A stretch of DNA of 64,000 bases from an uncultured Bacteroidales bacterium (GCA_964426725.1 CAYRRV010000010.1:155-64154); one strand, 5' to 3'; numbered from the stretch's first letter, positions 16,401-61,460 are shown. Translations and numbers: made by a program. The notes: generated by a model not told the origin, from the sequence alone.

Positions 16401-16402
16401 AT

Positions 16403-22895: not shown

Positions 22896-22907
22896 AATTG
22901 ACAAATC

Positions 22908-28733: not shown

Positions 28734-28750
28734 TGAAATTTTTAAGTTAG

Positions 28751-42281: not shown

Positions 42282-44210
42282 TTACTCGTTCAGGTTGATA
42301 TTAATAAAAGAGTACTGGTAATCGATGGGAATAAATTCCGTGTATTCTTCAACTTTTGCATTATCGAGGCATGCATCAATGATTCTTTGACCTACCATTG
42401 ATAAAGAGGGTTTTCTGAATTTTTGCAGTTCTTTTCTGAAAAATTCCTGTAAAATATCAGCGCCGGCGTCATACCCATCTTCACCAACGTCAACCTGCCT
42501 GTAAACTCTCAGGAACCGGGAAGGTATTTTTGAACCCTCGATTGTCAGGTAATTGAGTTCGTAACCAAGCAGCGGACAGCGAGCGGGTTGGTACTGGTCT
42601 TTTTTTAGCTTGGCGCTACCGCGTCTCGTGAGGTATTCTCTCATGAGAAGCTGTGGTTTAAAGCCGACCTTCCAATTACCAATATGCTGATTGGGAACAA
42701 GAGTGTATCTTACCCTGGGCGTGTTGACGATTTGTTCGAGCAGGAGGTTGGCATGGTTAATTTCCTTTCCGGTGGCAAATGGCCAGTATGATCCCACGCC
42801 CTCGCTTTGCATACCTCCCGAACTTACAATACTCGGATTCGCGTGTCCCCTGGGGGATACCAATCGCCACAACCATGCCAGGGCGGGTGGTAATATATGA
42901 AACAGTCCAATAATGCCGTAAGTTGGGTTTTCCCTCGTGCAGGGCGGGGTTCTCACGCCAAAACTTCTCACATCAACGGTAACGGGATTGTTCAATACAC
43001 CCGGAACAATATCTCTTGGTACAATTACTCTTGGGTTAGGACATTTTTTCCCGGGCTCATCTTCAATATGATCCCATACAAGTGCTGTACAGCCCGGCTT
43101 GCTTTCAATATTCAGGAAAAGAAGTGATTTTTCTGGTTTGATGGTCATTTTTTCCAAAAACGGGTCATCCCCGTAATCTTTTATTCCATCTACCCTGATA
43201 AACCAGGCATTTTCAGCATCAAGAATGGTGAGTTTCCCGTTGCTTTTTTGCAGTGACGGATGACATAGGGCCATGTCGTCGGTAACCGGGTTAAACTTGC
43301 AGAACATGGGCAATGAAATTGTTCTTTTCTCACCATCACTCAGGTTTTCACCAATAAGAACCATTCCCTCTGGTTCCCTGACTATATGTTGCAACATCTC
43401 GCTTTTTCCACCCCCACTGGCACCCTCGTGCATGTAGGTTGTCATGTTGTCATACGGGCTTATTACCTGAACGGTTGAACAATGCGTGGTGACCCACCCT
43501 TCATTTTCTCCCTGTGAAAGCAATACCCCGTATAAACCTTTTTTCGCACTCGGACCCGGGTAGAGGTTATAGGAGTACATTTCGTGAACCTCGTCTGTTC
43601 TGTAGTGCACAACAATTTGTTTCCCGTCAAAATGCGTATGACGGAAAGGAGGTGCAACATAAATCACGGACTGTATAAGGAAATCATCAGGTAATTTATC
43701 AACATCCTGTATAGATTGTAACATGGATAATCCCATGGCAAAAAACGCGGCATTAGCGGGTGCGATGGCAATACCACCGGAGCCAATATTATCTCGTCCG
43801 GCAAAATAGAAGAAACAGGCCAAATCCTGTTGTTTCATCCAATCTAACGTTTCCGTTTTGAGCTCCCTGAACTCGTACCCAAATCTGTCTTTGAATTTTT
43901 CTTTATCAGTGGGCAGGTTATCCGCGATTACCATGGTGTTAGGATCCCTCCTGCGCATGTAAGGTTCAGTATAATTGGCAGATATGCCATTGGTTACCTT
44001 GTGAACTATGACTTCAGTGTAGGGTCCTTTACCTGGTATATCATATGATACTTCAAAATATTCTTTTCCCTCTCCACCCGTTGAGGCATAGGCCAATTCT
44101 TCGTGATCGCAAAAAATAGTGCAGCTTTTTGCATTCGACAGGACATCAAGAATTTCCTCGTTCAACAGGTTTAATATTTTTTGAGGTAGTTTATTGAAAT
44201 CTTTCATCAA
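42282..44210 (-). CDS. Uncharacterised P-loop protein (DUF4914-like; HPr-kinase/PEPCK-like Walker A)
   Basis: 'MHEGASGGGKSEM' (DNA about 43399-43428), followed by 'VTDDMA' resembling the GxSGxGKSE ... DD pattern of HprK. The ~640-aa size matches what I recall being filed as DUF4914. Confidence 0.5.
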   Translation of the reverse strand: MMKDFNKLPQKILNLLNEEILDVLSNAKSCTIFCDHEELAYASTGGEGKEYFEVSYDIPGKGPYTEVIVHKVTNGISANYTEPYMRRRDPNTMVIADNLPTDKEKFKDRFGYEFRELKTETLDWMKQQDLACFFYFAGRDNIGSGGIAIAPANAAFFAMGLSMLQSIQDVDKLPDDFLIQSVIYVAPPFRHTHFDGKQIVVHYRTDEVHEMYSYNLYPGPSAKKGLYGVLLSQGENEGWVTTHCSTVQVISPYDNMTTYMHEGASGGGKSEMLQHIVREPEGMVLIGENLSDGEKRTISLPMFCKFNPVTDDMALCHPSLQKSNGKLTILDAENAWFIRVDGIKDYGDDPFLEKMTIKPEKSLLFLNIESKPGCTALVWDHIEDEPGKKCPNPRVIVPRDIVPGVLNNPVTVDVRSFGVRTPPCTRENPTYGIIGLFHILPPALAWLWRLVSPRGHANPSIVSSGGMQSEGVGSYWPFATGKEINHANLLLEQIVNTPRVRYTLVPNQHIGNWKVGFKPQLLMREYLTRRGSAKLKKDQYQPARCPLLGYELNYLTIEGSKIPSRFLRVYRQVDVGEDGYDAGADILQEFFRKELQKFRKPSLSMVGQRIIDACLDNAKVEEYTEFIPIDYQYSFININLNE

Positions 44211-47013: not shown

Positions 47014-49137
47014 ATGAGGAAATTTTTGTTATTGGTGTTTATTTTTTACGGGCAGATGCAAATAATATATTGTCAGGAAGATACGCTTCACCTGGAACAA
47101 TTAATGGGGCTTTCAATTGAAGAATTAATGGATTTGAAAGTTATTTCAGCCTCCCGGCAGGAAGAACCTGTCACTGAGGTTCCTGTACCGGTCACCATTA
47201 TAACAGAAGAAATGATTAAGGCCTGTGGCTCTCTTAATCTTAAAGATATATTAATCACTTATGTTCCCGGGCTCACCAATGTTGAAGATGCTGATGATCC
47301 CAATATTGCCATGCGGGGCGTGTATGGCTCGAACCAGTCCAAAATTCTCATGTTAATTAACGGGCACCGGATGAATATCCGGATTGTTAACTCATGTTTC
47401 CCGGAGTGGAGTAATTCATTGGATAAAATAAAAAGAATTGAGGTTTTAAGAGGTCCGGCTTCTTCATTATACGGGAATGTTGCTTTAACCGGCGTAATAA
47501 ACATTATCACGAAAAACGGGAGTGATGTAAATGGCATGGAAGTGAGAGGAGGAATCGGTTCCCACCAGCAGTATAATCTCTCACTGCTTTACGGGAAAAA
47601 ATTTTCTGAAACCCAGGATATCGCCATGTGGTACAATTTTTACAAGGCTGGAGGAGAAAAATTCAGCGTGAAGGCTGAAAATGATTATTCTCCTGTTCCA
47701 AAGGACGGAAATGTAATTGTTGGAGCTGTTACGGACATACCCGCCTTTGACGTGGGCATGCAGTTTAATTCGGGTAAACTATCCATCCTGGGTAATTATC
47801 GTGCTTCAAGCACCCTGCTGCCATACTCGAGCACGGGTTTAGGAGGTGAAATTTATAATTATCAGGATTACCGTACATATGACGGGCTGGGACCGGGTAC
47901 AACCATTCAGTCCTCACATATTGATATAAAAAGAAAGCTGCCCGTGATACAAGATTTTGAAAGTATTGTTAATATATATTTTGATAATGACGTGCTTATC
48001 AGTAATCATGTAGTGAATCCTGCACCTTCAGTAAAAAAGTGCTTTATACTTGATGAAAAAGACATCGCCGGTGGATTTCAGTTTTATACTTCCAAGAATT
48101 TGAATCTGTTTACCAAGCCTGCCGCGATTATCGTTGGTACCCAGGTAGAACTAATGCGGGTATATGATAGCTATACAGTTGAAGGCGATAGTGGTGAACT
48201 GGAATATACTACCGATTCAAGGGAAGAACCTTTTCTGGATAAAGGTTCGGAACAAAGTTATTCCTTGTTTGGGCAATTTAAATATAATTTAACAAAAAAA
48301 ATCATTTTAAATATAGGTTCGCGTTATGATTACAAAACCAGGATCAAGGGAAAGGCGGTTATGGATTTAAGTCCCAGGTTTGCCTTTATTTATCATCCCG
48401 AAGATTGGTATAACCTGAAATTGTCATATTCCAAATCATTCGTGGATGCTCCTTATTTTTACCGGTATAACAACCTGGAAGATTTTCGGGGTTCCGAAGA
48501 CCTGGAACCAGAGTATTTACATTCATTTCAGGTTACCTCTTACCTAGCGCCAGAGAAATTTAGTTTCAGTTATACGCTGAATTGTTTTTATAATAACCTG
48601 ATAGATGTTATTTACAGGGTTCAGAATAATGAAAATACAAACCGTCATTATATCAATGCCGGAAGATTGGAGTCCGTGGGAATCGAAAATGAATTGTCAT
48701 ACTTTCAGGATTGGGGCAGAATTTATTCAAATTTAACCTGGCAGTATGCTATTGATGCCTCTGGTTATGGAGTAAGGGATGGAAGAATATTTGATGTTCC
48801 TTCTTTAACCGCCAATCTTGTAGTGGATATCAAGCCTTTTTATAAGAGGAATAAGCTCCTGAATGTGAATTTGTCTTCCAGTTATACCGGGGCACAGCTA
48901 TCACCGATTGATTCATACAAGGGAGGATTATTATATATTTCACCTGATCATGAGGTCGGGGCTACAGTTCTATTTAATGCCGGGATCAGGCTGGGAGAAT
49001 TACAGGGATTCTCTTTCGACGGGCAGATTCGTAACATTCTTAACACGACCTATTACCAGGGTGGAACAACCACGATTCCATACCTGCAAAAGGGCAGGTG
49101 GCTAATGCTCCGGGTTGGTTACAGGATTAATGACTAA
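47014..49137 (+). CDS. TonB-dependent receptor (plug + barrel), of the type associated with YfiR/DUF4154 sensors
   Basis: 'LSIEELMDLKVISASRQEEPVTEVPVPVTIITEEMIKACGSLNLKDILITYVPG' and 'IEVLRGPASSLYGNVALTGVINIITK', followed by a long barrel. Confidence 0.85.
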   Translation: MRKFLLLVFIFYGQMQIIYCQEDTLHLEQLMGLSIEELMDLKVISASRQEEPVTEVPVPVTIITEEMIKACGSLNLKDILITYVPGLTNVEDADDPNIAMRGVYGSNQSKILMLINGHRMNIRIVNSCFPEWSNSLDKIKRIEVLRGPASSLYGNVALTGVINIITKNGSDVNGMEVRGGIGSHQQYNLSLLYGKKFSETQDIAMWYNFYKAGGEKFSVKAENDYSPVPKDGNVIVGAVTDIPAFDVGMQFNSGKLSILGNYRASSTLLPYSSTGLGGEIYNYQDYRTYDGLGPGTTIQSSHIDIKRKLPVIQDFESIVNIYFDNDVLISNHVVNPAPSVKKCFILDEKDIAGGFQFYTSKNLNLFTKPAAIIVGTQVELMRVYDSYTVEGDSGELEYTTDSREEPFLDKGSEQSYSLFGQFKYNLTKKIILNIGSRYDYKTRIKGKAVMDLSPRFAFIYHPEDWYNLKLSYSKSFVDAPYFYRYNNLEDFRGSEDLEPEYLHSFQVTSYLAPEKFSFSYTLNCFYNNLIDVIYRVQNNENTNRHYINAGRLESVGIENELSYFQDWGRIYSNLTWQYAIDASGYGVRDGRIFDVPSLTANLVVDIKPFYKRNKLLNVNLSSSYTGAQLSPIDSYKGGLLYISPDHEVGATVLFNAGIRLGELQGFSFDGQIRNILNTTYYQGGTTTIPYLQKGRWLMLRVGYRIND

Positions 49138-49212
49138 ATTATTATAAGGTTGTTACCCGTGCATCTGTTAAAATCTGTTTCCCGGTGTACCTGATTTATG
49201 GATCGGCTTCTA

Positions 49213-51642
49213 TTAAGGAAGCAGGAACCTGCCTAATTGATCCATTAATTTATCGAATTCAATCGGTTTTGAAAGGTACGCGTCGCAACCCGCGGCCAGG
49301 ATTTCTTTCTTTTCACTACTCATCGCATAAGCTGTTTGAGCGATTACCGGGATGCTTTTTGATTTTTTTATTTTTCTCGTTGCCTCGATTCCACTGATTC
49401 CCGGCAATTTTATATCCATGAGAATTATATCATACCCGTTTTTCAATGCTTTTTCCACGGCTTCATTTCCATCAATTGCACGGTCTGTTTTTATTCCGGT
49501 TTTTTTTAGTAATTCAAGAAGCAGAAAATAATTGGTGTCTTCATCCTCGGCAATCAACAAATGAAACTTACTGAAATTAGGATATATCCCGGGAAGTTTT
49601 TTTTCTTCATCAGCTTCTATCTCTTCATTTTTAAAATAATAACCGGGTATTTCAAGATAAAAAACTGAGCCCTTGCCAGGCGTACTCTTGTACCATAGAT
49701 TTCCCCCCATTAGTTGCGACAGGTTTTTACTTATGCTCAGTCCAAGTCCAACACCTCTTTTCAGTTTGGTCTTGTCTTCTTCAATTTTAGTAAACCTGTT
49801 GAATATGTACTCCTTGTTTTTATCATCAATACCAGGTCCTGTATCTTCTACATAAAAACGGATTGTATTATTTTCCAATAATTCATACCCGAGAGTAATG
49901 CTTCCCTCATCCGTGTATTTTACCGCGTTATCCATCAGGTTTGTAATGATTTGCTTCAATCTGGCCGGATCAGTATGCAGGTAAGGATCTTGAGCCTGGG
50001 TGGGTTTGTAGATGAGTTTAATATTATTTTTATTCAAAGATATCAGTTGACTCCTGTAATGCAGGTTTAATTCACCGGTAAGTTCTTTCACGGCTAATTC
50101 AGATTTCATGAGATTGATTTGACCCGATTCGATGAGAGATATATCCAGGATATCATCAATGAGATGCAATAACGTGCTTGTTCCGTTTGTAATATGCTTG
50201 TAATACTGTTTCTTTTTATTATTCGGTATTTCATCTGAAGTAATCAGGGATGAAAATCCAATGATGGCATTCATCGGGGTACGTATCTCGTGTGACATGT
50301 TGGCCAGGAAAGAGGATTTAAGTCGACTGGATTCTTCTGCTTTTAATTTTGCTTTTTCTAAATCGGCGGTTCGTTCTTTTACAAGTAATTCCAAATTGTC
50401 TTTGATATCTTCCAATTGCCTGTTCTTGGTAGCTATTTCTATATTCTGTGCCTGAACCTGATCATGTTTCTTCTTGATCTCTTCTTTCTGATGATTGATT
50501 TTTTCTTTTTGTTCTTCAATGGCCTCGTTTTTATGCTCCAGTTCAATATTGGCTTTTCTTTTCACATTAAACAAACTGTAAATAAAAAAGATAACAATGA
50601 GAAAAAGACCTGCTATACCCAGGGAAAGGTAAAGAATTGCTTTTTGTTTATTAATCTGGGTCATTTGTTCTTCAAGAATAGCTTCCTGTTCATTGATCTT
50701 TTTCTCATGCGAGAAAAGCTGATTTTCTCTTGAAAAGATGAGACTGTCATAATTATCTATCAGGGCTTCTTTTTTATCCAACTCCGATATTTTTGATTGG
50801 AGCAGGTAATCCTTTAACCGGATATTTTGATCCAACAGTTGGATTTTATCCTCCTGCGCGTCTATTTTTACTATTTGTGAATCAAGGAAAGCTTCTTGTT
50901 GGTCAAGTTCCCTGATTTGCCTGGCGATAATATCATTTTGTTTCCCGATAAGCAACTTTTGATTGGCAATCTCCGCTTTTCTTTTAGTGATAGATTGATT
51001 GAGTTCACCAATTTTTCTCTCATGGTCACGGATTTCATCCCTTAACTCCAAAACTATTTGATGAGATTCGATGAGTTGTTCCTCGGCTTTACGGTATAGT
51101 TGTTGAATATCCATGATGTTTCCACCAAGAAGCAACAATTTGGAAGAGATGGTTAAACCTTCCGAGTTAATACGTGCTTTATTGATCTCGAATGATAATT
51201 TGGCATTCGTTTTATTGGGAGTAATAAGATTTATCATGGTAAGGTGCGGCGCTTTCATGTTTTGGGTGACAAGCAACGTGACCTTTCCCTTGATTCTCTC
51301 GCTGATGCGTTCCATGTAAAAATTGAACTTTTCATCAACAAAAATCATTTGGCAGGGAGGAATTTCCTCGGGACTGTTAGTGTGGAGTACATTTATGGGT
51401 TTGCCCTGGTGTGCCATACTATTGGCAATAAATTGCATCCTTTTTACCAATGCTGTATCATGACCGACTATACAAATTGAAAACGTGTTAAATTCATCTT
51501 CATTCGACCAGTATATATTTTTCGAGAAGTTGTAAAGATAAACAGCCTTTAGATCCGTATCCTTTGTTGATTGCCCACGCGTTTTTCCGGCTAACAATAA
51601 AAAAATAAGTATTATACATATTATATGGACACGTGCGAACAT
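49213..51642 (-). CDS. Hybrid sensor histidine kinase/response regulator with N-terminal YfiR-like (DUF4154) periplasmic domain and a long coiled coil
   Basis: 'LKAVYLYNFSKNIYW' (DUF4154-like). A ~150-aa heptad-rich Q/E/K segment. TM 'LSLGIAGLFLIVIFFIY'. H-box 'MSHEIRTPMNAIIGF'. HATPase 'VEDTGPGI...GVGLGLSISKNLSQLMGGNLWYKSTPGKGSVFY'. REC 'LLIAEDEDTN...DIILMDIKLPGISG'. Confidence 0.85.
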   Translation of the reverse strand: MFARVHIICIILIFLLLAGKTRGQSTKDTDLKAVYLYNFSKNIYWSNEDEFNTFSICIVGHDTALVKRMQFIANSMAHQGKPINVLHTNSPEEIPPCQMIFVDEKFNFYMERISERIKGKVTLLVTQNMKAPHLTMINLITPNKTNAKLSFEINKARINSEGLTISSKLLLLGGNIMDIQQLYRKAEEQLIESHQIVLELRDEIRDHERKIGELNQSITKRKAEIANQKLLIGKQNDIIARQIRELDQQEAFLDSQIVKIDAQEDKIQLLDQNIRLKDYLLQSKISELDKKEALIDNYDSLIFSRENQLFSHEKKINEQEAILEEQMTQINKQKAILYLSLGIAGLFLIVIFFIYSLFNVKRKANIELEHKNEAIEEQKEKINHQKEEIKKKHDQVQAQNIEIATKNRQLEDIKDNLELLVKERTADLEKAKLKAEESSRLKSSFLANMSHEIRTPMNAIIGFSSLITSDEIPNNKKKQYYKHITNGTSTLLHLIDDILDISLIESGQINLMKSELAVKELTGELNLHYRSQLISLNKNNIKLIYKPTQAQDPYLHTDPARLKQIITNLMDNAVKYTDEGSITLGYELLENNTIRFYVEDTGPGIDDKNKEYIFNRFTKIEEDKTKLKRGVGLGLSISKNLSQLMGGNLWYKSTPGKGSVFYLEIPGYYFKNEEIEADEEKKLPGIYPNFSKFHLLIAEDEDTNYFLLLELLKKTGIKTDRAIDGNEAVEKALKNGYDIILMDIKLPGISGIEATRKIKKSKSIPVIAQTAYAMSSEKKEILAAGCDAYLSKPIEFDKLMDQLGRFLLP

Positions 51643-51833
51643 TCTGTTTAAATCCCCTGTTATTGTATGTTTATCCTATTCTTACGTCAAAACTATTTAC
51701 ATGGTTCCCGAAAAACAAGTATTCTTTAAACGTTTTTTAACCGAATAATATTTTAATTTTGATATTAAGTGCTGATAAGAAAACGCGCTATTTATAAATA
51801 TCGATTGGTTTTTTATGGTTACAATCGTTTAAT

Positions 51834-52700
51834 ATGCAAATTGTTATGGAGGGAATTGGATATCTAAATGATAAGTTCATTTCTGTTGAACAAGCCCTGA
51901 TTCCTGTTTACGACAGGGGAATGATTTTCGGGGATGGCATTTATGAGGTGATCCGGTGGTACGGGGAAGATTTTTTCAAGGCAAATGAGCATTTTGCCCG
52001 AATGAAGATAAGCGCTGAAGCCATCGGTTTAAAAATTCCTCATGTTGGCTTGTTAAAGGAAATAGCATCGAAACTTGCTCGGATGAATAAAATGCAGGGA
52101 AGAGAGGCCAGGCTCTATATACAAATTACGCGTGGTGTCGCCCGGCGTACGCATCATTATCCGGATCCCCCAGTTAAGCCTACTCTTTTCATGGATATTT
52201 CACCCTTTAAGCCTTTTGTCCGGCTATTGAACAATGGTGCAGAAGCTATTTTGCACGAGGATATCCGCTGGCAAAGATGTGATATCAAAACCACTGCACT
52301 GCTCCCCAATACGATGGTCATGCAGAAAGCTAAGAAATCAGGTGCATACGAGGCTGTTTTTCATGATGGTAAATTAATTACAGAGGGTACACACACTAAT
52401 ATTTTTGCTATTAAAAATGGAATGATAAGCACACCACCACGCTCGAACAAAATACTGGCCGGGATTACGCGAGGGCTGGTACTTGAATTTTGCAAAAAAA
52501 GTAACTATCTTGCCCGGGAAAGAAATATTATGGTCGATGAATTATTGGATGCCGATGAAGTATTTCTCACCGGAACGGCAACTGAAATAACCCCGGTGGT
52601 TAAAATAGATGGAAATATTATCGGTACAGGCAGGCCGGGAGTGGTGACCCGATCGTTACTAAATATTTTGAATGAAGAAACCAGGAAATGTAAATTTTGA
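51834..52700 (+). CDS. Class IV aminotransferase (D-amino-acid / branched-chain aminotransferase family)
   Basis: 'GDGIYEVIRWY', 'IQITRG', 'EGTHTNIFAIKNG', 'ILAGITR' and 'DEVFLTGTATEITPV'. Confidence 0.8.
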   Translation: MQIVMEGIGYLNDKFISVEQALIPVYDRGMIFGDGIYEVIRWYGEDFFKANEHFARMKISAEAIGLKIPHVGLLKEIASKLARMNKMQGREARLYIQITRGVARRTHHYPDPPVKPTLFMDISPFKPFVRLLNNGAEAILHEDIRWQRCDIKTTALLPNTMVMQKAKKSGAYEAVFHDGKLITEGTHTNIFAIKNGMISTPPRSNKILAGITRGLVLEFCKKSNYLARERNIMVDELLDADEVFLTGTATEITPVVKIDGNIIGTGRPGVVTRSLLNILNEETRKCKF

Positions 52701-52770
52701 CGAAATAAGATTTATAAAGGCCAGGTTGGTTAAACAAATAATCGGTTCAACAGTTAAACAATAAAAAAAC

Positions 52771-53712
52771 ATGTTTTTTAAAAACGCTTTCAGGGGGAAA
52801 AATGATATCTGGAGATACGTTCTCACGGTATTTCTCTCATTTTTGGCCGGTCAGGCTCTTGGTGCAATCCCTTACATATACGTGATCGGGCGTGCTATTA
52901 CCAGAACCGGTAATGCCGAGGCATTCGAAAATGTAACCGATTTTGAAGCACTGGGAATCTCTTCAACGATTGGCCTCATTTTGGTTGTAGTTCCATTTAT
53001 GACAGGATTAATTGGGCTTTACATCGGGGTTAAATATATTCATAAAAAGAAAATGAAGGATTTACTGACAGCCACCCCGCGATTCCGATTTGGGAGAATG
53101 TTTTTTGCCGGTTTCACCTGGATGTTGTTACTTGCCATTTTTCACACCTTTCATCTAATAACTGAACCCGAAAATTACACGTTTTCATTTGACAGCGCTC
53201 AATTTTTCTACCTTTTTTTGGTAGCGTTCATGTTTTTACCTTTTCAGACAACGTATGAGGAAATATTTTTCCGGGGTTACCTGATGCAGGGAATTGGTGT
53301 TGCTACAAGAAACAGGTGGTTGCCCGTGGTATTGACCTCCCTTTTTTTTGGCTCCTTGCATTTTCTGAACCCGGAGGTAAATGAATTCGGTTTCTGGATT
53401 ACCATGCCCCAGTATATAGGGTGGGGTTTTTTTCTCGGGATTATCGTTATTCTGGACGATGGATTGGAAATCGCTATTGGTACTCATGCCGCGAATAACA
53501 TCTTTCTTTCACTTTTCGTGACGCATAAAAGTGCGGCTCTTCAGACCAATGCTCTATTCGAAATTAATGAGTTAAATGCACTGAGAGATATGGCTGAGTT
53601 TTTCGTGTCGGTTATAATTTTTATCACTGTTTTGCAATTAGTGTACCGGTGGAAAACCTGGGACAAGATTTTTTCACCTTTACGTAGGCCGGCGAGGGAA
53701 CCATCCGAATAA
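52771..53712 (+). CDS. CPBP family intramembrane glutamic endopeptidase (CAAX protease/Abi family)
   Basis: Motifs 'EEIFFRGYL', 'FGSLHF' and 'HAANN' in a polytopic membrane protein. Confidence 0.8.
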   Translation: MFFKNAFRGKNDIWRYVLTVFLSFLAGQALGAIPYIYVIGRAITRTGNAEAFENVTDFEALGISSTIGLILVVVPFMTGLIGLYIGVKYIHKKKMKDLLTATPRFRFGRMFFAGFTWMLLLAIFHTFHLITEPENYTFSFDSAQFFYLFLVAFMFLPFQTTYEEIFFRGYLMQGIGVATRNRWLPVVLTSLFFGSLHFLNPEVNEFGFWITMPQYIGWGFFLGIIVILDDGLEIAIGTHAANNIFLSLFVTHKSAALQTNALFEINELNALRDMAEFFVSVIIFITVLQLVYRWKTWDKIFSPLRRPAREPSE

Positions 53713-53752
53713 AAATTACAGTATTCGAAATTGGAAGTAAAGATTTTTTTTT

Positions 53753-53760
53753 TATATTTG
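53753..53760 (+). promoter_or_regulatory. -7 box TATATTTG for the trp leader transcript
   Basis: Exact TAnnTTTG match, 17 nt before the leader ATG. Confidence 0.5.
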
Positions 53761-53777
53761 TTGCAAAACAAATAAGA

Positions 53778-53849
53778 ATGGCATTAAATACTATCAATAG
53801 AGTCAACTGTTCATGGTGGTGGTGGCACGAAAAGAACTACCGGTTGTAA
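53778..53849 (+). CDS. Trp leader peptide MALNTINRVNCSWWWWHEKNYRL (four consecutive TGG codons at 53814-53825)
   Basis: Read directly: atg gca tta aat act atc aat aga gtc aac tgt tca tgg tgg tgg tgg cac gaa aag aac tac cgg ttg taa. Lies between a -7 box and an intrinsic terminator, upstream of trpB2. Confidence 0.8.
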   Translation: MALNTINRVNCSWWWWHEKNYRL

Positions 53850-53893
53850 ACAGCTTGATTCGCTTGATAGCAGGAATATAAAATTAAAATGCA

Positions 53894-53927
53894 GGGGCAG
53901 GTTGTTTACGACCTGCCCCTTTTGTTT
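53894..53927 (+). terminator. Attenuator terminator upstream of trpB2
   Basis: GGGGCAGGT (53894-53902) / ACCTGCCCC (53911-53919), 8-nt loop, followed by TTTTGTTT. Ends 23 nt before the trpB2 ATG. Confidence 0.8.
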
Positions 53928-53949
53928 AACCCTTAACATTTTATAAATT

Positions 53950-55311
53950 ATGAGTAAGACCCGTAAAATTTTTCTGAACGAGAAGGAGATGCCAACGAAC
54001 TGGTACAATATCGTGGCAGATATGCCCAATAAGCCATTACCTCCTTTACATCCTGGAACCAAAAAGCCTGTAGGACCTGAAGATTTAGCGCCACTTTTCC
54101 CCATGGCATTAATCAAGCAGGAAGTGGCAACTGAAAAATTCATTGAAATTCCGGAAGAAGTAATGGATTTTTATAAAATATGGCGACCATCCCCTTTGAT
54201 AAGGGCATATAACCTTGAAAAATTCCTGGATACACCCGCTAAAATTTACTACAAAAATGAAGGAGTGAGTCCAGCCGGGTCTCATAAACCCAATACTGCA
54301 GTACCACAGGCTTATTATAACGCGAAAGAAGGTGTAAAGAAAATTACTACTGAAACAGGTGCAGGTCAGTGGGGAAGTGCATTAAGCATGGCCACGCAAC
54401 ATTTTGGTATAGAACTGCAGGTGTTTATGGTAAAAGTAAGTTACTACCAGAAACCTTACCGCAAGTCGATGATGAATACCTGGAATGCCACTGTTGTTCC
54501 ATCACCCAGCGAACTAACGGATTCCGGGCGCAAAATTCTCGCGGAAAATCCGGATTCTCCCGGAAGCTTGGGTATTGCCATATCTGAAGCCGTGGAAATG
54601 GCCGCGAAAAACGAGGATACGAAATACTCCCTGGGAAGCGTGCTCAATCATGTATTATTGCATCAAACCATTATCGGGGAAGAGGCCTTGAAACAACTAG
54701 AGATGACAGGTGATTTTCCCGATATAGTCATAGGTTGCTTTGGAGGAGGGTCTAATTTTTCCGGTATCAGTTTCCCCTTTTTAAGGCATAAACTGACGAA
54801 TGGTAAAGATATGAAAGTTATTGCTGTAGAACCTGCCTCTTGTCCTAAATTAACGCGCGGAGAATTCCAGTATGATTTCGGCGACACGGTTGGTTTAACC
54901 CCGTTAATTGCCATGTACACGCTTGGTCATAATTTCGTTCCCGCGAAAATTCATGCAGGGGGGTTGCGTTATCATGGTGCCGGGGCGATAGTATCTCAAT
55001 TGCTGAAAGACAAAATTATCGAAGCACAGTCAATCTTGCAGCTCGAATCATTTGAAGCAGGAGTTACCTTTGCCAGAACTGAAGGAATTATTCCCGCCCC
55101 GGAAACCAGTCACGCGATTGCTTCTGTTATCAGGGAAGCAAAAAAAGCCAAAGAAGAAGGTAAGTCGAAGACCATTCTCTTTAACTTCTCCGGTCATGGT
55201 CTGGTTGATATGGCTGCTTATGATCAATACTTTTCAGGGGCATTGGAAAATCACGCGATTTCAGAGGAAGACATTAAAAAAAGTCTTGCCCAACTGGAAA
55301 AAATCATTTGA
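53950..55311 (+). CDS. trpB: TrpB-like PLP-dependent enzyme (tryptophan synthase beta chain, TrpB2 type)
   Basis: The long N-terminus '[29 protein letters not shown]' is typical of TrpB2. PLP lysine region '[15 protein letters not shown]'. '[11 protein letters not shown]'. 453 aa. Confidence 0.85.
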
Positions 55312-55323
55312 GTATTTTCATTT

Positions 55324-55367
55324 CAAAAAAAATAACCGGTTCAATGTTACGAACCGGTTATTTTTTG
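55324..55367. terminator. Bidirectional intrinsic terminator between trpB2 and amt
   Basis: 12-bp stem AATAACCGGTTC (55331-55342) / GAACCGGTTATT (55351-55362), flanked by an A-run and a T-run. Confidence 0.75.
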
Positions 55368-55370
55368 CTT

Positions 55371-55399
55371 ATAAAAAGCCGCTCCCCGGGACGGGAGCG
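55371..55399 (-). terminator. Intrinsic terminator directly after amt
   Basis: Minus strand reads CGCTCCC-GTCCCG-GGGAGCG followed by GCTTTTTAT. Stem at 55380-55386 / 55393-55399. Confidence 0.6.
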
Positions 55400-55431
55400 A
55401 CCTGACTATAGGTGTTTAGGGTTAGGGAAAC

Positions 55432-56739
55432 TTAGTTATACGCGCTTTCTCCATGTTCGTATACATCCAATCCTTCTTCTTCAATTCTCCTGCTCACTCT
55501 TAAGCCATTCGTGGCTTTCAGTATTTTGAAAAGAATGAATCCGGTAATGAGTGCCCATGCACCAATAGATACTACACCAACTGCCTGTATACCGAGCTGT
55601 TTTAAACCTCCACCATAAAACAGACCGGTTTCAGTCGCGAATAATCCTACCAGTAAGGTTCCGAGCGCTCCACAGACACCATGTACCGAGATAGCACCCA
55701 CGGGATCGTCTACTTTCAATATTTTATCTATAAATTCAACGCTAAAGGGTAGGATGAATCCTGCCATAATTCCTATTGCTACAGCACCAGCAGGACTTAC
55801 AGCAGCACAACCGGCTGTAATTGCCACCAATCCGGCAAGGGCGCCGTTAAGTGAAATGGAAAGAGAAGGACGCTTGTATCTTGCCCATGACACGAGCATG
55901 GCCGTTACAGCACCGGCACCCGCGGCAAGGTTCGTGGTAAGTGCAATTTTACCAATAGCAATGGTACTGGTTCCGGTCGCTGCAAGCTCCGAACCCGGGT
56001 TAAAGCCAAACCATCCGAACCAAAGTATAAACACGCCCAGTGCACCCAGGGCTAAGTTATGACCCAGCACTGCTTTCACCGTTCCGTTGGGGCCATATTT
56101 GCCTAAGCGGGCGCCAAGTGTGGCAGAACCTGCCAGACCAACCCATCCTCCTACCGAATGGACGATAGTTGAACCGGCAAAATCAATGAATCCCCATTCT
56201 TCAATGGCCTCACCCGCTTCATTATAAAGAGTGCCGAGCGTGGATAACCAACCACCGCCCCAGTGCCAGAATCCTGAAATGGGATAAATAATTACAGTGA
56301 TTACAATGCTAAATACAATATACGCGTTAAATTTGGTTCTCTCGGCCATGGCTCCCGAGACGATAGTGGCAGCAGTAGCCGCGAAAACTGTCTGGAACAT
56401 CAGGTCCGTGTAATTGGCATAATCACCAAATCCTTCATCATTAAAAGCAAAGTTGTCCAGCGGATTTCCCATGAACCCACCCAGCCACGCGCTTCCATAC
56501 ATGATTGAATAGCCAATGAGCCAGTAGGTAAGACCACCTATTGAGAAGTCCATCAGGTTTTTCATGAGGATATTCGCCGTGTTTTTCTGACGGGTGAAAC
56601 CTGCTTCCACGAGAGCAAATCCAGGCTGCATGAACATCACCATGAAGGTGGCCAGCAACAGCCATATGTTATTGATGGAGATATCGAGTCCCACGGTGGC
56701 TTCAGCCACTTCAGGTACAGTTGTTAAAGCTTCTTCCAT
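55432..56739 (-). CDS. amt: Ammonium transporter (Amt family)
   Basis: 'MQPGFALVEAGFTRQKN' and 'DFAGSTIVHSVGGWVGLAG', with 11-TM-like hydrophobicity. Downstream of P-II. Confidence 0.9.
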   Translation of the reverse strand: MEEALTTVPEVAEATVGLDISINNIWLLLATFMVMFMQPGFALVEAGFTRQKNTANILMKNLMDFSIGGLTYWLIGYSIMYGSAWLGGFMGNPLDNFAFNDEGFGDYANYTDLMFQTVFAATAATIVSGAMAERTKFNAYIVFSIVITVIIYPISGFWHWGGGWLSTLGTLYNEAGEAIEEWGFIDFAGSTIVHSVGGWVGLAGSATLGARLGKYGPNGTVKAVLGHNLALGALGVFILWFGWFGFNPGSELAATGTSTIAIGKIALTTNLAAGAGAVTAMLVSWARYKRPSLSISLNGALAGLVAITAGCAAVSPAGAVAIGIMAGFILPFSVEFIDKILKVDDPVGAISVHGVCGALGTLLVGLFATETGLFYGGGLKQLGIQAVGVVSIGAWALITGFILFKILKATNGLRVSRRIEEEGLDVYEHGESAYN

Positions 56740-56774
56740 GATTTTTTACTTTTTTAGTGTTCCTGTTAAATTAT

Positions 56775-57128
56775 TTACTCCTGACCCGGCAGGTATAAGG
56801 ATTTATCTCCCTGTTCACCTGTTCTTATCCTGAATGCATCCTGAATTTCGGAAATAAAGATTTTTCCATCCCCGATTTCCCCGGTTTTTGCTGAAGTGAG
56901 AATAGCGTTTACCGCCGGTTCAACAAATTTGTCCCGGCAATACATTGAGATAAGTATCCTTTCTATTGTACTGGTATCGTAAACGATTCCACGGTAGGCT
57001 CTTCCTTCACGCGCCTGACCAACACCGCGAACTTCCCAGAAAGAAAAGAACTCGATACCCGCCTCGTGAAGTGCTTCCTGCACCTCATCGAACTTTGACT
57101 TGCGGATGATTGCTTCAATTTTTTTCAT
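56775..57128 (-). CDS. glnK: P-II family nitrogen regulatory protein (GlnK-like)
   Basis: 'MKKIEAIIRKSKFDEVQEAL' and 'GDGKIFISEIQDAFRIRTGE'. An alternative ATG lies 6 nt upstream (57134). Confidence 0.85.
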   Translation of the reverse strand: MKKIEAIIRKSKFDEVQEALHEAGIEFFSFWEVRGVGQAREGRAYRGIVYDTSTIERILISMYCRDKFVEPAVNAILTSAKTGEIGDGKIFISEIQDAFRIRTGEQGDKSLYLPGQE

Positions 57129-57169
57129 TCCCATGATACATGTATTTTAAATAATAAATACTTTTTATG

Positions 57170-57850
57170 TTAAAGAGAGAACCCTACTACCACGTAAAAT
57201 TGTTCCTTGTCCGGATTGAGTATTACAGCCCCGCTAACAGGGAGTGAAAAGCTGTCTGATACCTTTATTTCTTTGCTTGTACCTATACCCACGTTACACA
57301 AGTTGAATTCGCCATCAGATGTGTGCCATCCGTCTCCACCGCCTACAAATAAATCAATATTCGTGAAACTGTAACCGAGCTCGAAATACATGTCACCCCC
57401 GGCAGATGCGGCACCTCCTGCCTCGTTCAGCACGTAGTTACCAGCCAGCGAGAGGCCTGAGATTTCATAGCCCAGGTTTAATTCCAATGCATGTGCACCG
57501 GTTTCTTTTGAATAGTCGAAATACATGAGGCCGGGATAATAGTAATCGGTAATCCCGATGCTCAATCCAAAATCGAAACTGTAAGACGCGTAAAGATCGG
57601 CTTCAGCACCCTCGGATGAAGTAAAACAAAATGATCCCCATGAACCCAGCGTGAAATTGCCGGCACTGAATTCAACAAATGGCTGAATCGCCGGACCAAC
57701 ACCGAATTTTGTACCTCTCCAAACATAATTACTGTATACATCTGCACCAACACTGAATGGCGAGGATACTTCTTCTGCTTCCTGAGCAAAAACCACACTA
57801 TTAACTCCCATCAGGGTAGTTAAAATTAAGATTGCAAGCGTTTTTTTCAT
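57170..57850 (-). CDS. TorF-family putative outer-membrane porin
   Basis: Signal peptide, then 'VYSNYVWRGTKFGVGPAIQPFVEFSAGNFTLGSWGS' and 'EADLYASYSF...GITDYYYPG', which fit the TorF/Gcw_chp pattern as I recall it. First gene of the glnK-amt unit. Confidence 0.55.
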   Translation of the reverse strand: MKKTLAILILTTLMGVNSVVFAQEAEEVSSPFSVGADVYSNYVWRGTKFGVGPAIQPFVEFSAGNFTLGSWGSFCFTSSEGAEADLYASYSFDFGLSIGITDYYYPGLMYFDYSKETGAHALELNLGYEISGLSLAGNYVLNEAGGAASAGGDMYFELGYSFTNIDLFVGGGDGWHTSDGEFNLCNVGIGTSKEIKVSDSFSLPVSGAVILNPDKEQFYVVVGFSL

Positions 57851-57894
57851 GATAAATTGATTTAGGGTTACTAATAATTATTACATTCACGCCA

Positions 57895-57902
57895 CAAATA
57901 TA
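57895..57902 (-). promoter_or_regulatory. -7 box (TATATTTG on the minus strand) for the porin-glnK-amt unit
   Basis: The plus strand reads CAAATATA, 45 nt upstream of the ATG at 57850. Confidence 0.4.
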
Positions 57903-58005
57903 TAAATAAATTTTAATAACCCTAAAAAAACAGGGGTAAAAATGAAAAAAAATATAAAAAAGTAATTAATAGATAATAATTATAGGGGGGTATATTAAAA
58001 AAAGA

Positions 58006-58042
58006 TAAAAACAATAAAAAAGCCGTGTTGATTTTACACGGC
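58006..58042 (-). terminator. Intrinsic terminator after the lipocalin gene
   Basis: Stem AGCCGTGT (58020-58027) / ACACGGCT (58035-58042). The minus strand continues TTTTTATTGTTTTT. Confidence 0.65.
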
Positions 58043-58138
58043 TTTTAATTTTTAATAAGCAAATATGTGGTGAAGCGTCATTTTGCAGAAATATTGTCTT
58101 TTACTTGGGGTACGTGGCGGAAATCAACTGCTATTTAA

Positions 58139-58669
58139 TCATTGAGATAACACGGGGCAGTCTTGCTTTGTTTTTTTCAAATTAGTAAGGTCAAACCCTC
58201 TTTCTTGAAGGGTGCTTGTTATTTTTTTATACTTTTCATTTTCCATTTGTTTATTCCTGGATAAAATCCACAGGTATTTTCTTGATGGGTCTGATACAAC
58301 AGCCCATGAATAGTCACTGGCAAGATCAACAATCCAGTAATTTCCCCTGAAAGGCCAGAAAAACTGGACCTTGAGTTTTGAATTATTGCTATTTTTCACT
58401 GGAAAAGCCTTTCCGGTTATATCTTTCACTTTTCCATCTTTCGTGCTTACACATCTGTTATATACTTTTATGTAATCTTTACCCGTGAGTGTATATTCAG
58501 CGGAAGTACATTTGCAATTTTTCTGGAACCTGGCAGGTATAGTGGCAATTTCATACCATTTTCCCGCGTATTTTTCGATGTTCACCTGGTTTACTGTTTC
58601 CGGGGGTGAAATATGACGGTTACATGAGAAGAGCATAATCATTAATACAGGTATATAAATTTTAAACAT
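58139..58669 (-). CDS. blc: Bacterial lipocalin (Blc-like outer-membrane lipoprotein)
   Basis: Own lipoprotein signal 'MFKIYIPVLMIMLFSC'. Lipocalin motif 'YAGKWYEIATIPARFQ'. 'YWIVDLASDYSWAVVSDPSRKYLWILSR'. Start set at the internal ATG (58669) of the 246-aa track ORF. Confidence 0.8.
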   Translation of the reverse strand: MFKIYIPVLMIMLFSCNRHISPPETVNQVNIEKYAGKWYEIATIPARFQKNCKCTSAEYTLTGKDYIKVYNRCVSTKDGKVKDITGKAFPVKNSNNSKLKVQFFWPFRGNYWIVDLASDYSWAVVSDPSRKYLWILSRNKQMENEKYKKITSTLQERGFDLTNLKKTKQDCPVLSQ

Positions 58670-58879
58670 ATCCGCTCGCATCACCCCCATGCTTACTACA
58701 GGGAGTTTTAATCCTGTTTTTCCAAGGGCGCGATAAATAATCTTGTCTGGTTTCATAAAGGATGGAAGGTAAGACCGGGCCTCATTATTCAATAAAACAG
58801 GTGTGGCAGCCAATCCTGCAAAACCTGCCGTATTTAGTTTTAAGAAATTTCTACGTTTTATATTTTTTCCTCTCTTCAT
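58670..58879 (-). pseudogene. Stub of a Tat-signal aldo/keto reductase (first ~70 codons only), in frame with blc
   Basis: Twin-arginine signal 'IKRRNFLKLNTAGFAGLAA', then the AKR N-terminus 'IIYRALGKTGLKLPVVSMG'. The rest of the AKR barrel is absent. Confidence 0.6.
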
Positions 58880-58959
58880 GGCATTTGATTTTTATAGCTA
58901 AGCTATGCATTTTTTTCTGAAATGCCATATGTTTACACCATGCTGTGCAACGCGGGATA

Positions 58960-61428
58960 TTAAAAATCCGCGTCTTCCATGTTCATTCCTCCACCCCCTT
59001 CGCCATTCGTGCCTTTTTCCCGGTTTTTGTAATTGTTTATCTTATAGCTAAGCGTGAGCATAACGATTTGTGATTCACGGGTAAAAATAATGTCATTTCG
59101 GAAACCGGGTCCTGAAGTGTTGAATGAATAACGCATGGATCCAAAAATATTGCGTACCTGCAGGGTTGCCGAGAGAGTCCGTTTAAGAAAGTCCTGGCGG
59201 AAAGCAGCATTCATTCCCCAGAAACCATCCCTCTCGCCCTGGGCAGTTACAGTAGGGCCGAAATAGAAACCGTTTACCTGGAATCTCGTTGTTGGGCTTA
59301 ACCTTGCCGTGGTATTTAACCGCATGTCCCAATTGAAGCTTTCTTTCACCGTTTCCTGATCGGTAACCGCACCTTCCAGCTTGTAGTAATAGCCATTTCC
59401 TGTTAAGTTCACGCGAAGCCATTTCAGGGGTTCGATATTTAACATTAACTCGCTGCCAAGAGCATGATCACGGTCAAGATTTTCATACTTGTGAATGGTA
59501 ATATTGGTATCGGGCACTTGCTCGAGAATCCTGGTTATCTTGTTATTGGTAAGACGGTAATACGTTTCAAAAGAGATGAAATTCATCCCTGATTTCTTGT
59601 GATAACCCAATTCATAGGAGTCTATATATTCCGGTTCTAAATCAGGGTTTCCTTCCCTGATGTTATACCGGTTCATGTAAGTGGTGAAAGGTTCCAGGTA
59701 ATATCCCCGGGGCCTTTCGATTCTTCTTGAATAACTTGCCAGTACCTGATGATCATTTTGGAATTTTTTTGACAAATGGATGGTCGGGAAATAGTCCAGG
59801 CGATTGATCACGAATTCTTTAGCAGAGCGGGTATCTGAAAGTCGCCGGTCCGTGTATTCTGTTCTCAATCCCAACTGGTAATCAAAAAACGACATGGACT
59901 GGGAAAAGGTAAAATATCCCGCCTGTATATTCCTGTTGAATTTCATGGAACTGGAATAGTTCTCGTTATTGATGTACTCTCGCGTTTCCGGGTCAAATTC
60001 CTCGAAAAGAAACCCCTCGTTATCCGAGTCAATCCTGGATTGATATCCTGCTTCCAGTTTGCCATTATCAAAGGGACGTGTATAGTCTGCTTTTATTCTT
60101 ACCTGGTAACCATCCCCGACTTCGTTAGTACGTATTTGTGTTATAGGCAACTCATCGATTTTATTCCACTGTTCATCGGTTAAATATTCCCATTCCTGCT
60201 CTTCGTCACCTCCATTATTGGTATTATAATAGAGTAAGCCCGTGATTTCATGGCCTTCTTCATTGAACTTCTGATTGTAATTCATGTTCAAACTATAATA
60301 ATCTCTGGAACGCAGTGATTGGTCTTCTGTAAAAAAGTATAAATTAGTTGTTGAAGGAGTGGTGAACTCGTGCATATTGCCTGAACTTGCCCGGCCACCT
60401 TTATATTGTCCCACGTCACCCGAAAGGGTTAATGTAATCATATCATTAATATAATAATCGAAACCTCCTTTCAATACTTTTCCCTGCCGGGTGAAAACTC
60501 GTTCCATTTCGGTTTGAACAAAAGTGGTGGTGTCATTATTAAAAATTTGCCGGGTGCCTTCCATGTTCCCGTGATAATTCATTTCATTGATATCGGCACC
60601 CACGTATGCATTGAATTTACTAGTCTTGTAGTTCAGCAGGAAATCTCCCGAGTACTTGTCGCGTACCCCTGCCGTTGCATTCACGATACCGCTGATTCCA
60701 CCGCCCCTGTTTTTTTTCAGCACGATATTGATAATACCGGCCATGCCATCCGGGTCGTATTTAGCGGAAGGATTGGTAATAATTTCGATATTTTTAATGG
60801 TACTTGCCGGAATTTGTTGCAATGCATCGCTTCCTTCCAGCACGGTGGGCTTACCGTCAATTAAAACCGTGAAATTGCCACTTCCCCGCAGGGTCACATT
60901 TCCTTCTATATCTACATTAACAGATGGTGTATTCTCGAGCACATCTATTGCAGAACCCCCGGCGGCCGTCAATTCCTGTCCCACGTTCACAACTTTCCGG
61001 TCGATCTTGTATTCTATCCGGGCCTGGTCTGCCACGACTTCAACACCTTCAATGTTGGTAGCAGCCTGGTTGAGTTTCATTTGTCCAAGTTGTATGTTGG
61101 GATTTTGAGAAGAAACATTTAGATTCTTGTAGATTTTATCGTAACCAATAAAATTGATGGTCATGTAATATCTCCCGGGTCTAATCTTATTAATGGCAAA
61201 ACTTCCATCGGGGCCGGTTATCGTTCCCGTTACAAGTGATGAATCTGCTTTCCTGTAGATGGCAACATTCGCGTATTCTACAGGTTGACCAGTTTCGCTG
61301 TCAATTACAGTTCCCTCTACCTTGCCTTTTGCCATGGCCGGTGTTCTTTTATCCTGGTTATTTGATTCCTGCCCATGAATAATATGAAAAATGGTAATGA
61401 TCCCGCAAAAAATTAATAACTTCTTCAT
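58960..61428 (-). CDS. TonB-dependent receptor / outer-membrane beta-barrel family protein with carboxypeptidase-regulatory-like domain
   Basis: 'VEGTVIDSETGQPVEYANVAIY...YYMTINFIGYD'. Plug 'NVTLRGSGNFTVLIDGKP'. Barrel ending in Phe. Start set at the ATG 'MKKLLIF' (61428); the track ORF starts 6 nt earlier at a TTG. Confidence 0.85.
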   Translation of the reverse strand: MKKLLIFCGIITIFHIIHGQESNNQDKRTPAMAKGKVEGTVIDSETGQPVEYANVAIYRKADSSLVTGTITGPDGSFAINKIRPGRYYMTINFIGYDKIYKNLNVSSQNPNIQLGQMKLNQAATNIEGVEVVADQARIEYKIDRKVVNVGQELTAAGGSAIDVLENTPSVNVDIEGNVTLRGSGNFTVLIDGKPTVLEGSDALQQIPASTIKNIEIITNPSAKYDPDGMAGIINIVLKKNRGGGISGIVNATAGVRDKYSGDFLLNYKTSKFNAYVGADINEMNYHGNMEGTRQIFNNDTTTFVQTEMERVFTRQGKVLKGGFDYYINDMITLTLSGDVGQYKGGRASSGNMHEFTTPSTTNLYFFTEDQSLRSRDYYSLNMNYNQKFNEEGHEITGLLYYNTNNGGDEEQEWEYLTDEQWNKIDELPITQIRTNEVGDGYQVRIKADYTRPFDNGKLEAGYQSRIDSDNEGFLFEEFDPETREYINNENYSSSMKFNRNIQAGYFTFSQSMSFFDYQLGLRTEYTDRRLSDTRSAKEFVINRLDYFPTIHLSKKFQNDHQVLASYSRRIERPRGYYLEPFTTYMNRYNIREGNPDLEPEYIDSYELGYHKKSGMNFISFETYYRLTNNKITRILEQVPDTNITIHKYENLDRDHALGSELMLNIEPLKWLRVNLTGNGYYYKLEGAVTDQETVKESFNWDMRLNTTARLSPTTRFQVNGFYFGPTVTAQGERDGFWGMNAAFRQDFLKRTLSATLQVRNIFGSMRYSFNTSGPGFRNDIIFTRESQIVMLTLSYKINNYKNREKGTNGEGGGGMNMEDADF

Positions 61429-61430
61429 GT

Positions 61431-61460
61431 TCAATCTATTTCAATCTATCCTCAATCTAT
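61431..61460. repeat. Three tandem copies of TCAATCTAT (ATAGATTGA on the minus strand) abutting the TBDR start codon
   Basis: Copies at 61431-61439, 61441-61449 and 61452-61460 (period 10 and 11 nt). The last copy on the minus strand ends 2 nt before the ATG. Confidence 0.85.

Follow-up and report, generated by a model that had tools for sequence, protein, structure and literature searches.

Upstream of trpB2, a stand-alone gene for a TrpB-like, pyridoxal phosphate-dependent enzyme in a 64,000-nucleotide (nt) stretch of DNA from an uncultured Bacteroidales bacterium (GCA_964426725.1, CAYRRV010000010.1:155-64154; hereafter the window), is a leader that most likely constitutes a ribosome-mediated, leader-peptide transcription attenuator of the Escherichia coli trpL type. 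Through it, expression of the gene is predicted to depend on tryptophan (Trp), and we would put the probability of this reading at about 0.85. The leader contains a promoter box, TATATTTG, a 23-codon open reading frame (ORF) with four consecutive Trp codons (WWWW) and a strong intrinsic terminator, all of which had been pointed out in a preliminary description of this DNA and are present in the window sequence (Table 1). Switches of this kind are well known; on this gene none had been catalogued, and the present one is currently unannotated.

The run of four TGG codons is the only one in the window, where 0.01 would be expected by chance, and makes up four of the 23 leader codons, all consecutive. 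It is surrounded by a predicted hairpin, 1:2 (approximately 53791-53871; -28.6 kcal/mol), in which segment 1 contributes outer stems at 53791-53797 and 53800-53811 and an inner stem formed by the Trp codons themselves (53815-53823; minimum free energy folds), and of which the 3' strand overlaps the antiterminator segment. In shuffle tests this part of the leader folds with a z-score of -4.24, and the complete leader with a z-score of -4.85. Segment 2 begins 17 nt past the last Trp codon and has the leader stop codon inside it. The preliminary description had noted that 53842-53857 is complementary to 53898-53913 (segment 3) at 13 of 16 positions, and this holds; with three G-U pairs added to the 13 Watson-Crick pairs, all 16 positions of segments 2 and 3 are paired. 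The 2:3 duplex (-18.1 kcal/mol, z = -3.66) was matched by none of 200 dinucleotide shuffles. The terminator stem has an energy of -22.8 kcal/mol and its TTTTGTTT tract ends 22 nt before the trpB2 ATG (53950). To our knowledge, Shine-Dalgarno sites are absent from Bacteroidota mRNAs, and the position of the leader ATG within an unpaired A-rich stretch of the predicted fold fits the Shine-Dalgarno-independent initiation of the phylum.

The protein encoded downstream is of the TrpB2 type, as had been proposed. It matches NF009057 with 740 bits (cut-off 366) over positions 3-440 of 441, and so is a full-length TrpB2, and TIGR01415 with 649 bits (cut-off 519), whereas TIGR00263, the model for canonical trpB, gives only 142 bits against a cut-off of 392. 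That the regulated gene is a TrpB paralogue was counted as functional logic for Trp sensing.

In the proposed mechanism, transcription would start a few bases past the TATATTTG box, and the 1:2 hairpin around the Trp codons would be the first structure to form in the nascent leader, to be opened by a ribosome translating the 23-codon ORF in step with RNA polymerase. When charged tRNA-Trp is scarce, this ribosome would stall on WWWW (53814-53825), holding segment 1 and leaving segment 2 (53842-53857) free to pair with freshly made segment 3 (53898-53913), so that no terminator would form and RNA polymerase would enter trpB2. When Trp is plentiful, the ribosome would reach the TAA within segment 2 and mask that segment, the hairpin at 53893-53920 and its U-tract would form, and transcription would stop about 25 nt before trpB2. 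In a leader that is not translated, 1:2 would sequester segment 2 and the terminator would form, making off the default state. The two-state model of the preliminary description, in which the position of the ribosome selects the antiterminator or the terminator, is supported by conservation, covariation and folding under ribosome masks, but lacked the third structure, the 1:2 hairpin.

Conservation was assessed at 84 trpB2 loci, comprising 80 from a scan of one genome per species (65-80% identity) and four from closer relatives obtained by exact-protein look-ups. A screen for short ORFs containing WW, WWW or WWWW within 350 nt 5' of trpB2 detected them at about 30 loci, in Alistipes, other Rikenellaceae, Odoribacter, Lentimicrobiaceae, Draconibacterium, Melioribacteraceae and unnamed Bacteroidales. 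Interrupted Trp runs were found by inspection in the window's nearest clade (WLW and WCW), and the leader run is WRW in Paludibacter and Tannerella and WLWWRW in the closest relatives (82-83% TrpB2 identity), where the leader reads MRKFTGIVKGNWLWWRWCN... and the GTAAACA / GTTGTTTAC pair is identical. Conservation at the peptide level is confined to the Trp run. At 39 of the 84 loci, a covariance model (R1) trained solely on trpB2 leaders, terminator included, finds the element on the coding strand and just 5' of trpB2 (E < 1e-5); eight of these loci lie outside the training set. In the window R1 finds a single copy. The leader ORF and its TGG run are conserved upstream of many trpB2 orthologues, a point on which the preliminary description had staked its proposal, and the leader ORF with Trp run, promoter box, terminator and antiterminator pairing recur 5' of trpB2 in many Bacteroidales genomes. 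A second ORF of 22 codons overlaps the leader in another frame (53813-53881, + strand) and reads the TGG run as GTG (Val) codons; it is considered spurious because the TGG-reading frame is the one conserved in relatives. TAnnTTTG, the -7 consensus of the Bacteroidota primary sigma factor (PMC7366714), occurs no more than 60 nt 5' of the leader ATG (mostly at 16-22 nt) at all 35 loci for which a script detected a strong terminator as well as a Trp-rich leader ORF, compared with a background of 3.5%. The genes upstream vary among loci while the leader remains with trpB2, which argues that the hairpin is not merely the terminator of an upstream gene.

Both helices of the switch are also upheld by covariation. 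In an alignment (A1) of 32 leaders extending from the Trp run through the U-tract, in which the TGG at 53823-53825 is invariant, the helices as taken from the window sequence were scored cell by cell. For the 11 pairs of the terminator helix, 94.3% of cells are paired, compared with 37-62% when the helix is slid, 70 cells carry double changes, none of 500 shuffles reaches this value, and ten of the 11 pairs covary with change on both sides. For the 12 pairs of the antiterminator helix (53846-53857 with 53898-53909), 85.8% of cells are paired (slid, 36-52%) with 23 double-change cells, again reached by none of 500 shuffles; each of the central eight pairs is kept in 84% of the sequences or more, five of them without exception. 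Compensation in the antiterminator is seen in Odoribacter (GUAAUAAACA with UGUUUAUUAC), in some Alistipes (GAACAAUG with CAUUGUUC) and in a metagenome-assembled genome (MAG) of the Lentimicrobiaceae (CCGCCGUAA with UUACGGCG). An alignment-free test, in which the post-Trp leader was paired with the 5' half of the terminator and the best duplex compared with 200 shuffles for each leader, gave a median z of -2.5 over 35 leaders, and in 25 of them no more than 10 of the 200 shuffles did equally well. A hairpin surrounding the Trp run is predicted in most relatives; its z-scores in a shuffle survey of 23 leaders ranged from +0.8 to -5.7, and conservation of 1:2 is therefore treated as partial.

The effect of ribosome position was modelled on nascent RNA that begins at the presumed start site and runs up to and including the terminator loop, folded under masks that represent the ribosome by a crude footprint. 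With no ribosome, 1:2 is predicted to form and segment 3 to remain free, and the terminator follows; a ribosome with its A site on Trp codon 1 or 2 leaves segments 2 and 3 to form the antiterminator; and one with its A site on the stop codon masks segment 2 and so again allows the terminator. The constrained folding that had been suggested as a check thus gave the predicted state at the stop codon and at Trp codons 1-2, and was ambiguous at codons 3-4. The 2:3 hairpin (-24.8 kcal/mol) and the terminator are of about equal stability. Nascent-RNA folding and comparisons of duplexes with shuffles were used because equilibrium folding cannot separate the two states.

Several observations weigh against attenuation as formulated above. 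Equilibrium folding of the full transcript of the window keeps the terminator even with a stalled ribosome, and full-length leaders folded in this way under ribosome masks likewise retain the terminator almost always; the switch decision must for this reason be kinetic and co-transcriptional, as in E. coli trpL. Masks with the A site on Trp codon 3 or 4 slightly favour renewed formation of the outer 1:2 stem (-14.6 kcal/mol, compared with -12.7 kcal/mol for the antiterminator fold seen with codons 1 and 2), an outcome that we regard as a weak point of the crude footprint model. About half of the trpB2 orthologues have no leader, including locus L203, at 81% identity. One subgroup of loci (L006, L010, L011 and L015) carries a different terminator, and its 2:3 duplexes do not reach significance (z from 0 to -1.4). 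Nor does masking of segment 2 at the stop codon apply universally, since several relatives have their stop codon 20-40 nt beyond segment 2. The percentages of paired cells are somewhat inflated since the tested structure came from the window sequence, although the gap between paired cells and slid controls is large despite this. Finally, a literature search found no experimentally demonstrated leader-peptide attenuator in Bacteroidota; the one reported for the phylum was only predicted (Weinberg et al., 2010; PMC2864571).

The loci that depart from the common arrangement are of several kinds. Within the 84-locus set no leader was found at trpB2 of Parabacteroides, Coprobacter, Barnesiella or Desulfobacterota, and at three loci without a leader (L002, L004 and L005) trpB2 lies approximately 67-157 nt behind a gltD-like gene. 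In Dysgonomonas capnocytophagoides (L031, 1-4350), trpB2 is part of an operon, trpB1-trpE-trpG-trpB2, in which both TrpB types are co-transcribed; the leader of this operon falls outside the compared locus, which consequently provides no positive control. Three loci from Ignavibacteriales/Melioribacteraceae (L017, at approximately 31-127, L018 and L026; non-Bacteroidota) have a 32-34-codon ORF ending in ...WW(W)LSC before the stop codon, with a hairpin across the leader stop codon in L017 and a strong U-tract terminator in none of the three, so that control there may be translational, or at least not that of a classic attenuator. What look like decayed or rearranged versions of the element are found at L009 (2638-3000), with approximately 230 nt inserted between terminator and trpB2, at L014 (2889-2968), where the -7 box is followed directly by a GTTGTTCAC-type terminator with no Trp ORF, and at L040 (2854-2961), where the terminator is present and the Trp ORF absent. 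The sequence TTTTGTTTAACC, right after the terminator stem in the window (53920-53932), is common to L006, L010, L011, L201 and L205 and exceeds the needs of a U-tract.

A terminator/antiterminator switch could in principle be read by a protein or a small RNA that recognizes the UGG-rich stretch or the core of the antiterminator, GUAAACAA / UUGUUUAC, with the ORF incidental, and we consider this unlikely. It finds some support in the central 8 nt of the antiterminator helix, which are conserved in sequence beyond pairing in the 32 leaders (TGTT invariant, CA nearly invariant), although such conservation is expected because these segments must pair with two partners, and has been noted for segments of this kind in the attenuators of actinobacteria (PMC1262725). 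Leader translation and transcription-translation coupling are, moreover, an assumption for Bacteroidota leaders, and translation is unreadable from the sequence of mRNAs that, like those of Bacteroidota, lack Shine-Dalgarno sites. Against an incidental ORF, the Trp codons invariably share the frame of a short ORF, with its ATG before and its stop codon after them, even though the remaining peptide varies, and the interrupted runs (WLW, WRW, WCW and WLWWRW) hold TGG in frame, which an RNA-binding motif would not need. Known readers of this type were looked for and rejected: TRAP would be expected to have 9-11 (G/U)AG repeats at a spacing of 2-3 nt, whereas the leader has three such triplets, none in series, and 53650-54050 gave no covariance-model match at E <= 10 to the T-box or to any other cis-regulatory Rfam family. 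Rfam scans of the whole window at the gathering score and of 40 trpB2 loci were likewise empty of cis-regulatory matches.

That the hairpin is simply the terminator of the upstream CPBP/Rce1-like gene (52771-53712), or a constitutive partial terminator, with a WWWW ORF present by chance and trpB2 expressed by read-through or from a downstream promoter, is hardly credible. The upstream gene is on the same strand and there is no other strong terminator before trpB2; however, 180 nt, including a conserved promoter box and the leader ORF, separate the hairpin from the stop codon of the upstream gene, the same leader is found behind different upstream genes in relatives, the chance expectation for the TGG run in the window is as low as given above, the 22 nt from U-tract to ATG leave no room for a promoter, and the antiterminator covaries. 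An addition to attenuation, and not an alternative to it, would be an action in trans of the terminated leader RNA of approximately 150 nt or of the 23-amino-acid (aa) peptide, for which rnTrpL and peTrpL of Sinorhizobium meliloti are a reported precedent (PMC7298713), and which the expected abundance of the attenuated transcript at plentiful Trp would favour. We rate this as quite improbable, given that the peptide is not conserved outside the Trp run, that the window holds a single copy of the element and that there is no sign of a target, no target search having been made.

If trpB2 is controlled by attenuation as proposed, the leader bears on the role of stand-alone TrpB2 (that is, TrpB2 encoded 'outside the operon'), which has been debated for two decades, with indole salvage, an O-phosphoserine-dependent Trp synthase, serine deamination and others under discussion. 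According to Merkl (2007; PMC1854888), the selective function of the stand-alone enzyme is not identified, and indole salvage by TrpB2 has been shown in one archaeon (Hiyama, 2014, as cited in PMC11085991). A covarying Trp-codon attenuator before trpB2 in approximately 40% of the nearest species-level orthologues implies that TrpB2 would be made when charged tRNA-Trp is short, and this regulatory evidence points to a role of TrpB2 in Trp supply in these bacteria. We infer, along with the preliminary description, that trpB2 may serve indole or serine salvage. More tentatively, and with the odds against it, the trpB2 leaders may represent a distinct and widespread branch of Bacteroidota Trp leaders that annotation has missed, with TrpB2 as a Trp-starvation-induced enzyme by which anaerobic Bacteroidales would make Trp in a single dedicated step from environmental indole and either serine or O-phosphoserine. 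If so, trpB2 might be the only trp gene in some genomes, whose owners would be conditional 'indole prototrophs'. The arrangement also illustrates that a detached trp gene can keep an attenuator of its own, the opposite of an expectation voiced for dispersed trp genes (PMC2395257). An attenuator on trpB2 will not surprise a specialist in attenuation, and its main value lies in the regulatory evidence on TrpB2.

Table 1. Elements of the trpB2 leader and neighbouring genes, with positions counted from the first nucleotide of the window.
Feature	Position	Strand	Remarks
-7 promoter box TATATTTG, Bacteroidota sigma-AB type	53753-53760	+	Consensus TAnnTTTG; 17 nt 5' of leader ATG
Leader ORF MALNTINRVNCSWWWWHEKNYRL, 23 codons plus stop	53778-53849	+	Translated from window sequence
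Sensor, TGG x4 (consecutive Trp codons)	53814-53825	+	Read from sequence
Segment 1 (5' strand of 1:2 hairpin)	53791-53823	+	Minimum free energy folds
Segment 2 core GGTTGTAAACAGCTTG	53842-53857	+	Spans leader stop TAA (53847-53849); partner is segment 1 or segment 3
Segment 3 CAGGTTGTTTACGACC	53898-53913	+	3' part of terminator 5' arm, loop and start of 3' arm; antiterminator partner of segment 2
Intrinsic terminator AGGGGCAGGTTG-TTTA-CGACCTGCCCCT (53893-53920) plus TTTTGTTT tract	53893-53927	+	12-bp stem
trpB2 (TrpB-like pyridoxal phosphate-dependent enzyme, 453 aa), regulated gene	53950-55311	+	NF009057 740 bits, TIGR01415 649 bits
D-amino-acid transaminase-like gene	51834-52700	+	Upstream of trpB2
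CPBP/Rce1-like gene	52771-53712	+	Upstream of leader
amt	55432-56739	-	Convergent, downstream of trpB2
glnK/P-II	56775-57134	-	Beyond amt as seen from trpB2; then porin-like gene on same strand

The trpB2 gene is monocistronic, the next gene, amt, being on the opposite strand, and the genes from 47014 to 61434 have no connection with Trp apart from trpB2 itself. The preliminary description had stated that no trpE is nearby, and this agrees with a tblastn search of the window with all ORFs of Bacteroides and Dysgonomonas trp-operon loci, in which the verified queries (TrpB1, TrpE, TrpG, TrpD and TrpC, with trpA and trpF lying outside the verified set) matched trpB2 alone. The best homologues of the protein are 80-83% identical and come from Bacteroidales/Bacteroidota MAGs, which, together with the type IX secretion cargo proteins encoded in the window, points to a source in this group. 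TrpB2 is not depleted in Trp, with four residues in 453 aa (0.9%) compared with 1.0% in 11 other ORFs of the window. Genes for nitrogen assimilation surround trpB2 in the nearest clade (window 55432-57850; L001-L005, L007, L008 and L203), with a gltD-like gene 5' of trpB2 at seven of the nearest-clade loci, a convergent amt-glnK block 3' of it in the window and in L007, L008 and L203, and a porin-like gene next in the window and L007; this neighbourhood may reflect mere synteny or a functional link. Elsewhere in the window, Pfam gave no match at E <= 1e-5 for three large ORFs, at 16349-20866 (1505 aa), 20847-22895 (682 aa) and 28751-30487 (578 aa). Between them lies a gene (22908-28733) for a SprB-repeat protein of 1941 aa that carries a type IX secretion sorting domain. 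The region 16349-30487 may represent a cluster of gliding or adhesin genes, the partners of which are uncharacterised. A 1922-aa PKD / Ig_7 / CHU_C protein, a type IX secretion cargo (36375-42143, - strand), adjoins a gene for a 642-aa DUF4914 protein (42282-44210, - strand; 968 bits over the full family length).

The nearest described relative of the leader is Bacteroid-trp (RF01692; Bacteroidete tryptophan peptide leader RNA), which is reported to control 'trpB and trpE genes' (Weinberg et al., 2010; PMC2864571). The preliminary description had named this family and proposed a search with its model; the family exists and the leader is related to it, but the model does not detect the leader, with no match in the window at the gathering score (49 bits), none at E <= 10 in 53650-54050, and none at the gathering score in 40 trpB2 loci. 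This negative is genuine because the model gives 100-112 bits to its positive controls, Bacteroides trp-operon leaders retrieved from metagenomes with an exact-pattern scan. In the reverse direction, R1 matches six Bacteroides operon leaders (39.8-51.1 bits, E 1e-9 to 5e-7, a score that is partly generic, reflecting Trp run and terminator), aligning UGGUGGUGGCGC, GUCGUAA and, in the terminator, AAAGAGCCUGU...ACAGGCUCUUUU, which indicates that the two groups of leaders are related. They share the phylum, the promoter type, a short ORF with at least two UGG codons, often followed by CGC or CAC, and an A-rich spacer leading to a G+C-rich terminator that begins ...AGAGCCUGU; the UGG run of Bacteroid-trp lies inside a 'loosely conserved hairpin' (seed SS_cons), and an equivalent is predicted in the window. 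The leader ORF here thus has the UGG codons by which RF01692 leaders of Bacteroidota trpB and trpE are recognized, on a gene that is trpB2. They differ in that the inspected Bacteroides seeds precede trpB1, the first gene of a biosynthetic operon, and not a stand-alone trpB2, that the conserved antiterminator core of trpB2 leaders (GUAAACAA / UUGUUUAC) is their own, and that the Rfam model ends at the first bases of the terminator. We conclude that trpB2 leaders are divergent relatives of Bacteroid-trp, of the same kind and mechanism, outside the curated model and on a different gene. No trpB2 leader in Bacteroidota was found described in the open-access literature, a description elsewhere being possible. 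A broader, terminator-including model such as R1 would improve the annotation of Bacteroidales and of gut and sediment metagenomes, where RF01692 misses the trpB2 branch. On a human-gut metagenome contig with a Bacteroides-type trp leader (L097, 3166-9891), the operon trpB1-trpE-trpG-trpD-trpC is followed by a convergent glyA; no trpF or trpA was identified among the scanned ORFs, and one 219-aa ORF after trpC had no match.

Trp attenuators have also been predicted in actinobacteria, including one 5' of trpB2A in Corynebacterium diphtheriae (Seliverstov et al., 2005; PMC1262725). These resemble the window leader in their predicted leader peptides with double or triple UGG, in conserved complementary triples in antiterminator and terminator, and in having among the regulated genes one named trpB2, a name that may not denote the COG1350 type. 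They belong to another phylum, have GC-rich helices, and involve a second trpB that is co-transcribed with trpA.

The closest mechanistic parallel is the trpL leader of E. coli and Salmonella (Yanofsky). There is no sequence similarity between the two, and the window leader has four Trp codons where trpL has two, lacks a Shine-Dalgarno site, uses another sigma factor and promoter, and controls a single trpB paralogue instead of trpEDCBA; the switch in the window is also known here from sequence alone. The four-segment logic of 1:2, 2:3 and 3:4 is nevertheless the same, with Trp codons in tandem within segment 1, a stop codon at a position where a terminating ribosome would cover segment 2, and termination by default in a leader that is not translated. 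As in trpL, a Trp-rich leader ORF and an intervening intrinsic terminator precede the regulated gene and are joined by a mutually exclusive antiterminator that covaries, and the placement of Trp codons and stop codon relative to these segments, ambiguous in the folds for Trp codons 3-4, is likewise that of a trpL-type attenuator.

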